Shown here piece by piece: positions 6,878 to 12,740 of a DNA stretch of 64,000 nt. The DNA lies in assembly GCA_965208125.1 (NCBI GenBank), contig OZ242320.1, positions 5,472,001-5,536,000 of the forward strand. Reading direction: 5' to 3'. Source of the DNA: Candidatus Latescibacterota bacterium. GTDB lineage: Bacteria; Latescibacterota; UBA2968. The first letter of the stretch is position 1; every line of letters begins with the position of its first letter. The notes under the pieces were generated by a model that saw only the letters and a list, made by a program, of their open reading frames with translations, was not told the DNA's origin and did not search any database. Position numbers and translations under genes: made by a program.

Positions 6878-6915
6878 AAAAAAAGAGCGGCAGATTGCAA
6901 AAACCCACCGCTCTT
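6878..6915 (-). terminator. Intrinsic terminator downstream of the mini-RNAP gene
   Basis: AAGAGCGG...CCGCTCTT stem followed by a T-run on the minus strand. Confidence 0.7.
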
Positions 6916-6916
6916 A

Positions 6917-7012
6917 AGAAGTAAGAAGTGAAAAGTGAGAAGTCCACCCAATACCTCCCCAGGGCGGATGCTTCTTCACCTTCACACTTCTACCTTCACA
7001 CTTCACACTTCA
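6917..7012. repeat. Degenerate heptamer tandem repeats (AAGTGAG/AAGTGTG type) in inverted arrangement
   Basis: gaagtaagaagtgaaaagtgagaagt (6918-6943) and the complementary cttcacacttctaccttcacacttcacacttc (about 6980-7011). Related copies lie at about 12641-12672 and 13813-13830. Confidence 0.6.
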
Positions 7013-10000
7013 ACCGGTAACCCCACAAATAACCGACTGTACTCATCCGTCAACGGATCGCGCTCGCCCTTTTGCGCTGCGCGGGCAAATACCACGCCCG
7101 GCGTCTCCGACCTGCGTGCCCGCGCAAAAACACCATATCCACCGGGCGCACTCTGCGTTTCCAGATCGCTCTGAATCGCCAGCATCTCCGCCAGCGCATT
7201 GGCCAAACCCCAGCGTGCACCAATCGCCCGAGCAAAAAGCTCCTCTGGCGTCAGCCCCTCTCGAAAACCGCGCTTCAGAGGCGTGACTCCGCCCCAGGCG
7301 TTCTGCGTCACACCCTGGGGAGCCACATACAGCCGGACTTGCTGCCAATTGGCACGCGCACCACATTCCACCAGAAGCGCAGGAATCCCGAGATCATCGT
7401 CGTCATATCCGCGGAACTGCGCCAACACAGCCGACACCTCATCGGGATAATCGCGCCAGACATCCGGATCATCGCCCTCTGGCGGACCGGGCCAATCGAG
7501 CGACGAACCGATAAACGCACTCATCGACGCACCTGTCTTGCGCGCGGCATCAAACCCCTTATCCCACAACCGCGCTGCCAGATCCAATGCAGCCTTCGCA
7601 CCATCGCGAGCCATTGCATCTGCCATCCAGCCCATCACCTGATGCTTATCGACAAATAATCCATTTCGCTCCATCTCGTCGCCGACAATCTCCGCAATCT
7701 CCTGCCCCCCCTCATCCGTCATACTCATATACGCCAGGCCAAACAGCGCATCGTGCATCGGGTGTACCTTCTCCCGTACAATCAGCCCCGGATCCCGAGT
7801 CAGATGCGCCACCGCCGACAGATGCTCTTCAGCCGACCACTGACCTTCTTCAGTCACCGGCACAAAAATCGCCACCTGATCGCCGTCAAAATCCATATTC
7901 ATCATCTTGCAAATCGCCACACTCACGCGCACGGCATCATCCGCCACGCGCACCGGACGACACGCCACAAAAGCCATTGGCGAAAACGCGGGATTGCGAA
8001 GCACCACAGTCCATAACTCAGCCATAGCCGCATCCAGGGCTTCCTCCGCTTTACTCGACCGCCTATCCACTTCTTCAGCACCCACCTCTCGTGCTGCAAA
8101 CGGCCCGAACAACGTCCACGCCATTTCTTCGGGCACACCGACCTGATCGTATCGCAATTCGGGTGCAGGCACAGCCACCGAACGCCCGCTGAACAACGCA
8201 CGCGCCTGAAATTGCAAACGCGACAACTCGCAAAATGCGCGAACCCGCTCAGAAAGCGTTTCAACCGCCCGATCCACCAGCACATCTGGCGCGCCATTGG
8301 CAATCATCTCCGCCAATCGGTCATTGGCTTCTCGCAATGCGAGAGGCACATCTTCTCCACTCACATGAGTCAACGAATGCCCCGGCAACCACGGATGCGG
8401 AACCGAACGCGCAAGCGCGAAATCTCCATCGCGCTTCAATGAAAACTCGGCACCGCGTTCATCCAGCGCAACAGCCACCCCACCTTTCGACAAATACCCA
8501 ATTAGCTCATCAAACTGAGGAGACGGCACAGTGGGAGCAACAGGACCTACAATGACGCGTTCTGCCAGAGTATCGGCATCATCTCGATCTACCGCGCACG
8601 TATTGAACAAATCGCCAATCACCCCAAAAGCACCCGCTTCTCGCAACGCCAAAAACTCTGTCTCGCCCAACCCTTGATCGTGTTGATCCGGCTTCACACC
8701 CATGTGAATTTTATCTGCCGCCAGATGCAACGTGCGCCCCCAATACACCCACCCCACTGTGGTACGGCGCAGTAGCGCTTCCCCATTCACCGTCAGCGTC
8801 TCCATACCATCTTCTGCCAGCCCATTAGCACTCAAACGACCGCGTATCTCATCGTCTTTGGGCGCATTGAGCGCGGGAACAATAACCGGCTCCCCCTCGG
8901 CCTTTGCAATGCGCCCGACCACAGCTTCGCGCAACTGTCCAATATTCAACCGCGACGGTAAACCACATACACTCACAATAAGCTCCACAGGCGTGCCATC
9001 TGGCAATTTGGGCATCTGTTCATCTCGCACAATGCGCGACACCACCCCCTTAAAACCGTGTCGATTGCTCAGCTTATCGCCCGGCGCAACGCGATTGGGC
9101 AGCATCAGCCGGTTCGCCGCGGATTCGCTGATCACAACTGCATCTTCATGTGCATCCCCATTCCACGCCATAAACGCGGTCAGCAAATTGTACCCCGTCC
9201 AGAAATGCGGATCGCGCGGTTCACATCCCGTTTGCACCAGCGCGGGTTCCGACTCCAGTATCTTGCCGTCATATTGCGTGTGATACGCGTGCCACACACC
9301 CTGCTCATCGCGCTGCATATCGGGACCCGGCGCGCCAATCCACTGCCGCATCATATTCACACCCATCAAAACGCGATTGGTATCATTGTGTTCCAAAAAC
9401 GGAACCACCGAAGCGCCTATCCCCAACCGCTTTTCAGGCGCATCGTCTTCAATCACCAGCTTGCCATCGCGAATAGTCGCCCCCTGAGCCACCTCTAAAA
9501 TCCGCGCGAGATTCGGCCCCTCAGGCGTACAATAAGGACACACGCGCCCATCGTGTGACGGATGATAGCAATTCTCTATTCCCTCATCGGCCTCACCGAT
9601 AATTGGGATCAACGTCACCCGCCGCAAATGAACGTACATATCCTGCAAATTGGTCGCCTGCAAATACTGAGAGGTCGGTTCTTCCGTAAAAAATGTGTGA
9701 ATCCAATCTCCCAACTGTATCCATGTTTCAACTGTATCATCCAGTATCTCTGGCATATTTTCCAGCCGCTCGGCAATATAATCGCGCAATTGCTCCCCCA
9801 CACACCGAATCTCAGCACGCACCAAATCCACATCAGTCGGCGCGGGAACTACCGTCCGAAAAAAACCATCCACCTTAAACCGACCCCATTCATCGGGTTG
9901 AGGAATATTGTTGTACACGATCTCTTGCCCCCCCTGAATCGCGAGATGCAATTCACAGGTATATTCATCCACCGACACCACCCGATACCCCGCCAGCGAC

Positions 10001-10089
10001 ACCCGATCTGCCAACAATTCGGGCAACCCCTTTTGAATAAACGCATCCCACGAAATTTTATGCCACGGCGCCTTTACTGAAAGACTCAT
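7003..10089 (-). CDS. Miniaturised single-chain RNA polymerase beta-beta' fusion (RpoB/RpoC core paralogue), about 1028 aa
   Basis: RpoB motifs in order: [128 protein letters not shown]. RpoC motifs follow in order: [67 protein letters not shown]. Start ATG at 10089 with GGAGG RBS at 10096-10100. Confidence 0.92.
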
Positions 10090-10131
10090 CAAATGCCTCC
10101 TGTCTAATTGAGGGTGTGGATACATACAACC

Positions 10132-11965: not shown

Positions 11966-11980
11966 TGTGAAACGCTCACA
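11966..11980. promoter_or_regulatory. Palindromic putative operator (LacI-family-like) upstream of the ABC gene
   Basis: TGTGA-AACGC-TCACA, i.e. TGTGAGCGTTTCACA on the minus strand, directly after the sigma stop codon. Confidence 0.35.
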
Positions 11981-12586
11981 TTACTCGCCTTCATACCCCC
12001 TCCCATACCTCCGCCCCCATGCCTCTGCAAGTTGCTTGCGCGCGTGGAACAGCCGCGACTTCACTGTCCCCTCTGGAATCGCCAGCCGTTCGGCAACTTC
12101 CCGAAGCGCCACCTCATCTTCGTACACCATCTGAAATATCTCGCGTTTTTCCTCTGGCAACGCATCGATCAACGCCTGCAAAATGCGCCGCTGTTCAGCG
12201 CGTTCCAATTGCACATCGGGTCCCAGCGCAGCCCGATCGATCATCCACCCCGGAACAGGTTGTTCTTCGTCCTCCTCATCGTAAAGCGAAGGCATTTCCA
12301 ATGGCTGTTCGCGACGACGACTTTGGCTTCGCAATTGATTCAGCGACAAATTTCTCGCAATCCGAAACAGCCATCCCCGAAAAGACCCTTGCCCCGACCA
12401 TTGATCGGCCCGATTCCAAACTCTGAGAAAAACCTCCTGCGTCAAATCATCTGCAGCGACCGGATCGCGCGTTATCCAGCGCAGACTCTCGGTCACCTGT
12501 GCCTGATAGCGCGCAAACAGAATCGCAAAAGCCTCTTGATCCCGCGCCACAATTCGCTGCATCAAAATCGCGTCCGATGGTGTCAA
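11981..12586 (-). CDS. ECF-type (group 4) RNA polymerase sigma factor
   Basis: Region 2: ADDLTQEVFLRVW..SFRGWLFRIARNLSLNQLR. Region 4: LPEEKREIF..LREVAERLAIPEGTVKSRLFHARKQL. Likely TTG start at 12586 after AGGAGG. Confidence 0.95.
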   Translation of the reverse strand: MTPSDAILMQRIVARDQEAFAILFARYQAQVTESLRWITRDPVAADDLTQEVFLRVWNRADQWSGQGSFRGWLFRIARNLSLNQLRSQSRRREQPLEMPSLYDEEDEEQPVPGWMIDRAALGPDVQLERAEQRRILQALIDALPEEKREIFQMVYEDEVALREVAERLAIPEGTVKSRLFHARKQLAEAWGRRYGRGYEGE

Positions 12587-12605
12587 AAAATATCCTCCTG
12601 TGGGA

Positions 12606-12634
12606 ATCGACACCGCCCAATACCCGAAGGTTCA
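12606..12634 (-). promoter_or_regulatory. ECF-type promoter, likely autoregulatory
   Basis: Minus strand reads TGAACCT-N16-GTCGAT just upstream of the sigma RBS. This matches the general ECF pattern of -35 GAAC and -10 GTC. Confidence 0.7.
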
Positions 12635-12708
12635 AAAAAAGTGAGTGGTGAAAAGTGTGAAGTGAGAAGTCCCCACATCTCCCCACCAGTGGTCAGTTCA
12701 TCTATTAT

Positions 12709-12740
12709 AAAAAAGCGCAGCCCTGATGGACTGCGCTTTA
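12709..12740 (-). terminator. Intrinsic terminator
   Basis: AAAGCGCAG...CTGCGCTTT stem with a T-run on the minus strand. It insulates the sigma unit from upstream genes. Confidence 0.7.

Follow-up and report, generated by a model that had tools for sequence, protein, structure and literature searches.

Can a bacterium that carries a complete RNA polymerase also keep a second, much smaller one under a sigma factor of its own? The question is raised by a locus of a Candidatus Latescibacterota bacterium (assembly GCA_965208125.1) that lies in a window of 64,000 nucleotides (nt), the whole stretch of DNA analyzed here (contig OZ242320.1, positions 5,472,001 to 5,536,000; coordinates below are counted from its first letter). 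On the minus strand of 6878-12740, three co-oriented open reading frames follow one another and encode an extracytoplasmic function (ECF) sigma factor, an ATP-binding cassette (ABC) exporter, and a fused beta-beta' RNA polymerase of 1028 amino acids (aa), called the mini-polymerase below. Comparison of loci from other genomes showed that the conserved entity is a self-contained cassette of two genes, a dedicated ECF sigma gene and then the mini-polymerase gene, with its own ECF-type promoter. The genes and the promoter-like motif are placed as follows:

12609..12634, minus strand: ECF-type promoter-like motif TGAAC-N14-CGGTGTC, 8 nt upstream of the sigma ribosome-binding site
11981..12586, minus strand: ECF sigma factor, TTG start at 12586 after AGGAGGA, about 201 aa, frame open from GTG 12613
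10132..11925, minus strand: ABC exporter, ATG start at 11925, 597 aa
7003..10089, minus strand: fused beta-beta' mini RNA polymerase, ATG start at 10089 after AGGAGG, frame open from ATG 10125

Start codons were set by ribosome-binding sites and homologue alignments; the mini-polymerase length of 1028 aa counted from ATG 10089 is the same in its protein-collection record. The genes are separated by 55 nt (sigma/exporter) and 42 nt (exporter/polymerase), so that the three co-oriented genes with short gaps of the preliminary description, which was made from the sequence alone, were recovered in the open reading frames and the Pfam assignments alike. The source genome is a single contig of 5.75 Mb, and the sequencing-run sources indicate a sponge- or coral-associated member of the Latescibacterota. 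Ordinary rpoB and rpoC genes (open frames of 1290 and 1368 aa) are present about 285 kb from the cassette, and the mini-polymerase is therefore an extra copy.

The evidence that joins the two genes comes from other genomes. A close relative of the sigma (45-99% identical) was located directly upstream of the mini-polymerase gene, on the same strand, in all 34 genome-contig loci with upstream DNA, a 35th genome-contig locus being a 1151-nt fragment outside this count. These 34 loci belong to Latescibacterota, Armatimonadota, Planctomycetota, Chloroflexota, and Spirochaetota. The same arrangement was found in seven further loci, namely the second cassette of one genome (L045) and six more, which brings the total to 41 of 43 loci from five phyla. 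The gap between the two genes is mostly 14-122 nt, and in three loci the matches overlap by about 30 nt in different frames. At one of the two exceptions (L056, G151:C1:717900-724500, genome G151) the polymerase lacks its first 100 codons, no sigma is present, and a one-mismatch copy of the promoter motif lies 110 nt upstream; by its sequence, this locus looks like a deletion remnant.

The link was also seen in a survey of 168 genomes of the phylum with a sigma threshold of E <= 1e-25. Each of the two genes was detected in 64 genomes and the pair in 62; among the 104 polymerase-free genomes a sigma match was obtained in only two, one a sigma at a contig edge (G161) and the other a different ECF sigma (35% identical). 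The distribution is patchy by family, from 0 of 13 to 24 of 30 genomes; all 20 other genomes of the genus carry the cassette with intact frames. Copy number also tracks, one genome having two polymerases and two sigmas. Conservation of this gene pair across homologues was among the checks that had been put forward with the preliminary description, and the 41 adjacent loci and 62 genomes with both genes make its outcome strongly positive.

The two-cassette genome is that of an 8.4-Mb relative. Its cassettes (L045, G003:C1:3366400-3372500, and L024) encode polymerases 47-49% and 42% identical to that of the window, and they carry one exact promoter motif and one variant with a 13-nt spacer. In five genomes of the genus (G085, G090, G091, G095, and G096) the polymerase match is split (about 8-490 and 470-1040) inside one frame of 1055-1130 aa, which suggests an insertion right at the beta/beta' junction. 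Fusions of sigma and polymerase, considered for open frames of 1194-1244 aa, were rejected, the genes in L049-L052 overlapping or abutting in different frames.

The family itself is large. A word-indexed protein search gave 1588 proteins at E <= 0.001 among 8000 candidates scored, canonical subunits included, and the best 120 matches were mostly about 1000-1070 aa long. An exhaustive search of 50%-identity representatives gave 337 proteins at E <= 1e-30; the best 150 of them include at least some 75 full-length family clusters (50% identity), all family-like entries are <=1101 aa, and four longer ones (1948-2522 aa) match in 5-6 separate stretches. All five names listed for family members are "hypothetical protein", and a literature search, with supplementary tables outside its scope, found the sigma/mini-polymerase family nowhere described. 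In the ESM Atlas, two clusters, with 73 and 135 members, are of similar length. It also holds other fused Rpb2_6 + Rpb1_2 clusters of 1221-1787 aa with no recorded taxa, one of them named with an inorganic pyrophosphatase domain, and the diversity of fused two-barrel polymerases appears to exceed the cassette family.

The sigma factor (frame 11981-12613) matched Pfam Sigma70_r2 (1.5e-18) and Sigma70_r4_2 (9.9e-15) with no match to region 3, and it scored 122.5 bits against NCBIfam TIGR02937 (cut-off 42.9). With regions 2 and 4 present and regions 1.1 and 3 absent, its sequence places it in the ECF (group 4) branch of the sigma-70 family. The linker between the two regions is long and conserved and bears the motif VPGWMIDxxxLGP at 12218-12256 (minus strand). 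The closest of the 11 sigma paralogues in the source genome is 33.5% identical, and the linker motif is absent from all 11.

A cognate anti-sigma gene in the same operon is usual for ECF sigmas, though not universal. None was found in the unit. Pfam assigned no such function in the unit, the two upstream genes encode soluble proteins and are unlinked elsewhere, and the downstream genes are not conserved. The absence of an anti-sigma gene from the unit, as first described, thus stands. Like known ECF sigmas, including those without an anti-sigma, the cassette sigma is limited to regions 2 and 4, and its own gene is preceded by a GAAC/GTC-type promoter; it differs in combining the lack of an anti-sigma with the lack of a C-terminal extension and with the long conserved linker, and its sole conserved partner gene encodes a polymerase. 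Noncanonical ECF sigma factors are the subject of PMC8999054, as far as the available part of that source goes. The main text of the ECF reclassification paper PMC7826278 contains none of six polymerase-related terms; its supplementary tables, outside this check, could list the sigma group.

The preliminary description had placed an ECF-like promoter ahead of the genes, and this is upheld by motif conservation across phyla. The motif consists of TGAAC at 12634-12630 and CGGTGTC at 12615-12609 with N14 between them. Its 12 specified bases are exact in 30 of the 34 loci with upstream DNA; L036, L037, and L040 deviate from it at 1-2 positions, and in L024 the spacer measures 13 nt (recognized by eye). 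Among distant loci, with polymerases <=65% identical to that of the window, 9 of 13 have the exact motif, as do five of six loci added later. Between the motif and the point downstream where the sigma match starts there are 11-217 nt; in the close clade the motif overlaps the open-frame start. The motif, which precedes the sigma's own gene with a -35 block of the AAC type and a -10 block of the GTC type, has the features of an autoregulatory ECF promoter and is predicted to act as one.

Further targets of the sigma were sought with the same motif. The 5.75-Mb source genome contains one exact copy (0.7 expected), and relaxed forms were not enriched in it (10 found, 11.4 expected). Five other genomes gave 11 matches, compared to 0 for the reversed control. 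Three of the 11 are known cassette promoters and one belongs to a second cassette; of the remaining seven, two hit one and the same conserved motif within the coding sequence of a 707-713 aa protein, and five lie in unrelated places. As no other convincing copies emerged, the recognizable regulon of the sigma is its own cassette, and a wider regulon was rejected on account of the chance-level count of relaxed copies.

The mini-polymerase frame (7003-10125) matched Pfam RNA_pol_Rpb2_6 (5.8e-39), Rpb1_2 (9.4e-15), and Rpb2_3 (1.3e-4), ordered as beta-type domains (Rpb2_3, Rpb2_6) and then the beta'-type domain (Rpb1_2). A family profile built from 41 members (38-90% identical to the protein of the window) matched bacterial beta (1.6e-80) and beta' (3.6e-52) in the PDB, and the best 60 PDB sequence matches were all beta or beta' chains. 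The AlphaFold model, a confident one (pLDDT 91.6, pTM 0.89), returned bacterial and plastid beta and beta' as the top Foldseek matches, and nearly all of its best 50 fold matches were cellular polymerase chains. Bacterial family models outscored archaeal ones (e.g., rpoB, 167.8 versus 131.6 bits in NCBIfam), with the score far under the NCBIfam rpoB cut-off of 801 bits. These direct matches to bacterial beta and beta' in sequence and fold argue for a trimmed derivative of the bacterial enzyme, and not for a YonO- or QDE-1-like protein. Its recognizable elements are the following:

9046..9153, minus strand: beta-half active-site signatures HED and RHGFKG, with about 22 residues between them where cellular beta carries the flap
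8242..8331, minus strand: clamp-helices coiled coil of the beta' half, aligning to Mycobacterium tuberculosis beta' 349-383 and to host beta'
7879..7893, minus strand: catalytic DFDGD with the magnesium-binding aspartates
7183..7242, minus strand: first 20 residues of the bridge helix (pattern match); the modeled helix comprises residues 948-979

The signatures DFDGD, ED, and NRxGxKG are invariant in all 41 family members, individually D733, F734, D735, G736, and D737 in the beta' half and E315, D316, N342, R343, G345, K347, and G348 in the beta half. Two double-psi beta-barrels with full catalytic signatures can thus be recognized from sequence, and by these signatures the mini-polymerase appears to be catalytically intact and is under catalytic constraint. 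The retained beta parts are a short N-terminal piece, a segment of the fork/rifampicin region, the barrel with ED and NRHGxKG, and the beta C terminus; the retained beta' parts are the clamp helices, the barrel with DFDGD, the F-loop, the bridge helix, and a short C-terminal piece. In the clamp helices, modeled at residues 583-597 and 602-619, N589 and P601 are invariant in the 41 sequences. The bridge-helix region aligns to M. tuberculosis beta' 776-864, and the alignment to the host subunit stops within the bridge helix.

The losses are extensive. About the first 400 residues of beta (the lobes), about 265 N-terminal residues of beta' (the N-terminal clamp with the zinc region), and most of the beta' rudder are missing. 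The flap is lost as well, host beta 780-1033 being reduced to 6 profile positions, and the same gap is seen against PDB beta chains. The chain ends 49 residues past the bridge helix and so has neither trigger loop nor jaw. Within the cassette, no gene for alpha or omega was found. In cellular polymerase, the beta' clamp helices are the main dock of sigma region 2, and the beta flap (SBHM) is the dock of sigma region 4 and positions it for -35 recognition. Predicted complexes of the sigma (182 aa) with residues 215-1028 of the mini-polymerase, made from separate alignments and with no controls, scored 0.18 and 0.17, under the mark of 0.32, and are counted neither for nor against binding.

Known polymerases resemble the mini-polymerase in part. 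With bacterial rpoB/rpoC products it shares the two double-psi beta-barrels (DFDGD, ED, and RHGxKG), the fork/rifampicin-region segment, the clamp helices, the F-loop, and the bridge helix, but it is one chain of 1028 aa in place of about 2600 aa in two chains, without the lobes, flap, beta' N-terminal clamp and zinc region, most of the rudder, trigger loop, and jaw. The beta::beta' fusions of Helicobacter and Wolbachia (PRK09603 and PRK14844) likewise have beta and then beta' in one chain; however, they are the only polymerase of the cell and are full length (about 2840-2890 profile positions), whereas the mini-polymerase is a trimmed accessory copy that scores 167.7 bits against PRK09603 (cut-off 4632) and 156.5 bits against PRK14844 (cut-off 5372). 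YonO, QDE-1, crAss-like gp66, and P23-45 gp64 are single chains with two barrels, most of them without a sigma-like partner that needs alpha or omega, and YonO is not known to have a trigger loop. According to the available part of PMC10770324, YonO/QDE-1-type enzymes form a clade of their own with hardly any sequence similarity to the cellular ones. Unlike that clade, the mini-polymerase matches bacterial beta and beta' directly, and none of its best 60 PDB matches came from it.

The nearest architectural analogue, compared by description, is Orf6 of the yeast killer plasmid pGKL2, a reduced polymerase of cellular type fused into one chain; as far as PMC2919709 was available, it is an Rpb2::Rpb1 fusion reduced by about half. 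It differs in its eukaryotic plasmid origin and in having no sigma. The available part of PMC7824862 reports that killer-plasmid enzymes have the flap (SBHM) insert in common with cellular beta; the mini-polymerase has lost it. Phage fused beta-beta' polymerases on IMG/VR contigs are also of the fused two-barrel kind (about 1250-1450 aa), but they are 20-29% identical to the mini-polymerase, and a sigma-like gene lies within 5 kb in 0 of 80 loci. PADLOC defense models gave no family for the polymerase or the sigma and only generic ABC ATPase matches for the exporter; PHROGs families with a match either had no name or were described as RNA polymerase beta subunit, none being informative; plasmid records gave only rpoB matches; and BFVD fold matches were giant-virus and poxvirus polymerase subunits with low TM-scores. 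A defense or phage origin was rejected on the lack of PADLOC and informative PHROGs families and on the viral contigs, which held only distant forms without a sigma. Both parts are of known kinds, the one an ECF sigma and the other a two-barrel polymerase of the bacterial branch, and the sequence of the mini-polymerase sets it apart from a canonical core (neither flap nor trigger loop was found), from the full-length fusions, and from the YonO clade.

The exporter does not belong to the conserved pair. It carries ABC_membrane (5.7e-33) and ABC_tran (1.8e-29) in one chain, which by sequence makes it a half-transporter of the MsbA/bacteriocin-exporter type, and it reaches no NCBIfam equivalog cut-off (best, MsbA_rel, 360 versus 780 bits). 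In the window and at 7 of the 20 close loci (polymerase >=74% identical), its gene separates sigma from polymerase. In the same slot, L016 has a different ABC exporter (40% identical to that of the window), L013 and L014 have a soluble protein of 381-396 aa with no Pfam family, and 9 of the 20 close loci have a sigma-polymerase gap of <=110 nt. No exporter was found in the slot at the 14 more distant genome-contig loci with upstream DNA or at the seven further loci. The GC content of the exporter gene is 0.47, compared to 0.54-0.59 for the polymerase gene. The exporter is accordingly described as a lineage-specific insertion, a cargo or passenger of one clade and not part of the machine, and the three-gene self-contained unit proposed at the outset gives way to a conserved unit of sigma and mini-polymerase with the exporter confined to one close clade.

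RNA libraries contain the locus in related organisms. Contigs from sponge and coral metatranscriptomes cover all three genes and are 90-95% alike to the window, which indicates that they come from relatives. In library X1, one contig spans 8747-11167, across the polymerase/exporter junction, and another joins the exporter start to the sigma; in X2-X4 there are stretches without contig cover. In X1, X3, and X4, contig ends fall at 12611-12621. The junction-bridging contigs are compatible with one transcript and are no proof of cotranscription.

The boundaries of the unit and its surroundings include these features:

12712..12739, minus strand: intrinsic terminator of the upstream gene, 12-bp stem then T-run
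6883..6915, minus strand: intrinsic terminator 88 nt past the polymerase stop codon, 14-bp stem then T-run
6921..6962 and 12648-12689, no strand assigned: 42-nt imperfect direct repeat, copies 74% identical, the pair flanking the cassette

Terminators had been described on both sides, and both hairpins with T-runs were confirmed by folding: the upstream one has -23.7 kcal/mol (z -6.2) and the downstream one -20.6 kcal/mol (z -5.9), and in each case 0 of 200 shuffles folded as well. The scan gave 10 terminator-like sites overall, compared to 7.1 +/- 3.0 in shuffles; with a total near the shuffle level, it is the strength and placement of the two bounding sites that count. The upstream terminator would shield the unit from read-through. 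The flanking repeat extends over about 42-65 nt at 72-74% identity, with a further copy region at 6978-7015, and its short motif is dispersed genome-wide (11-mer core, 135 copies, about 3 expected); the repeat families were labeled D1, D2, and I1-I3. Other tandem repeats occur at the same place upstream of the promoter in related loci. The cargo turnover may go back to a recombination hot spot formed by the flanking repeats.

Genes outside the sigma/polymerase pair vary between phyla and even within the genus, and no conserved downstream gene was found across the loci compared; at distant loci the downstream genes include a PhyH dioxygenase, a GH4 glycosidase, a type I methylase, a recombinase fragment, and a carbohydrate-binding protein. 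Upstream in the window, gene 12763-13695 (minus strand) encodes a 310-aa acidic helical protein with no Pfam match, and gene 13822-14859 (minus strand) encodes a 345-aa protein with an N-terminal DksA/TraR-type C4 zinc finger. The zinc-finger gene was rejected as a part of the system, being present in 90 of the 168 genomes of the phylum, including 15 of 15 of a cassette-free genus; its position in G087, G090, G092, and G096 is remote from the cassette. Downstream there are a BlaI-type repressor (6405-6791, minus strand) and then a BlaR1 M56 peptidase fused to two TonB_C domains (4708-6405, minus strand), a pair that occurs twice in related loci with sensor proteins of 584-919 aa. Beyond the BlaR1 gene are a 427-aa protein with 9 WG beta-repeats (3461-4744, minus strand) and a 621-aa protein with 8 HEAT_2 stretches (1474-3339, minus strand). 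Repeat proteins of the HEAT and WG types are common in sponge symbionts.

What the pair does can be weighed against this evidence. The preferred reading, to which we give a probability of roughly 0.45, is that the dedicated sigma serves as the specificity subunit of the mini-polymerase in a self-activating pair with the clamp helices as the dock, a physical interaction that we infer. Sigma region 2 would dock on the retained beta' clamp helices, and the long conserved sigma linker, and perhaps region 4 too, would substitute for the missing flap. The pair would initiate at its own promoter in a self-amplifying loop without alpha or omega, after a first round of expression from the sigma on the host core, and the loop would express the operon cargo, here the ABC exporter, elsewhere the 381-396 aa protein, and most often nothing. 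This reading is preferred because the sigma dock is kept amid massive loss, the linker is special, no anti-sigma is present, and co-occurrence is nearly perfect. A dedicated machine of sigma and mini-core was one of three models offered in the preliminary description and is the one that now reads best; its pairing of the two proteins gains from the linkage and from the kept clamp helices, and its weak part is the lost flap, which would position sigma region 4. Extended to a minimal two-protein machine in at least five phyla, with a single-chain 1028-aa core that has no alpha, omega, flap, or trigger loop, its own sigma held through the clamp helices and a novel linker contact, a private promoter, a cargo slot, and an orthogonal self-amplifying loop, the proposal is tentative.

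Several observations weigh against the sigma acting as the subunit of the mini-polymerase. The flap is deleted, yet a strict -35-like block is kept at canonical ECF spacing, which fits promoter reading by the flap-bearing host core; sigma regions 2 and 4 are fully canonical, and the sigma should therefore bind the host core too. At G148, the other exception among the 43 loci, an intact polymerase has no cassette sigma or motif within 3.6 kb. A regulon limited to the cassette itself leaves the biological output unexplained at the many cargo-free loci. In the RNA libraries, the contig ends at the sigma side are 8-18 nt upstream of the transcription start predicted from the motif (near 12601-12603), an X2 contig skips 116 nt and then extends into the upstream gene, and another contig runs beyond the downstream terminator, so that other transcripts or DNA carry-over may be involved.

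Some of these observations also feed the main rival, in which the sigma works only with the host core and has a single target, its own operon, for which it is an on-switch, the mini-polymerase then acting sigma-free; like other trimmed two-barrel enzymes, it could copy single-stranded DNA, RNA, or unusual templates. Canonical sigma domains and canonical ECF promoter geometry agree with this, as do a mini-polymerase without flap, lobes, lid/zinc region, and trigger loop, the sigma-less polymerase of G148, and the host-driven expression that is required to start the loop anyway. It would, however, leave an ECF sigma with one target and no anti-sigma or other regulator, that is, an uncontrolled positive loop. 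It also does not account for clamp helices and a tip motif that are conserved though the adjoining rudder and N-terminal clamp are lost, for a family-specific linker absent from the 11 genome paralogues, or for the 168 genomes in which the sigma without the polymerase is seen only as the contig-edge match of G161. We regard this rival as doubtful. Much less probable is a mini-polymerase that imitates the core and captures the sigma through its clamp helices, serving as an anti-sigma or buffer, with negative feedback or ligand-gated release, which had been the second of the three models. The kept clamp helices, the lack of a classical anti-sigma, and cotranscription, which would suit a sigma/anti-sigma pair, are in its favor, but catalytic residues, bridge helix, and fork region are invariant or conserved in 41 diverse members and would be needless for a mere binder, and with no further promoter copies a released sigma would have no target.

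A selfish, horizontally moving expression cassette that is kept by driving itself, with no benefit to the host, is slightly less probable again. It would suit the patchy distribution (64 of 168 genomes, families from 0 of 13 to 24 of 30), the presence in five phyla with neighbors that differ even within the genus, the flanking repeats, and a regulon that equals the cassette. Yet no integrase, transposase, or plasmid or phage context is common to the loci, all 20 other genomes of the genus keep intact frames, and the catalytic residues are under strong purifying selection. The least probable is the third of the three models, an inducible defense against antibiotics that target RNA polymerase, with a bypass or decoy polymerase and efflux. 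It drew on the extra polymerase and ABC exporter sharing one operon in the window and could also cite the two different exporters (40% identical) that occupy the same slot in related genomes. The exporter is missing from 12 of 20 close, 14 distant, and seven further loci, the slot can carry an unrelated soluble protein, no resistance determinant was identified, and with one promoter per genome the pair would be unable to take over general transcription; being restricted to one clade, decoy plus efflux cannot be the conserved function.

The sequence comparisons show a mini-polymerase under catalytic constraint that travels with a sigma and a promoter private to it, and a sigma gene beside a stripped-down, single-chain polymerase gene in many uncultured bacteria points to an unstudied second transcription device. 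If the sigma acts only through the host core, the family would still be a polymerase with wide distribution and conserved catalysis that is switched on by a private sigma. If the sigma programs the mini-polymerase, the latter would be the smallest sigma-dependent polymerase of cellular type and a second transcription device in cells that already have a normal one. It would then also be a natural experiment on the parts needed for promoter-specific initiation, with flap, lobes, zinc region, and trigger loop dispensable, and a ready-made orthogonal expression system.

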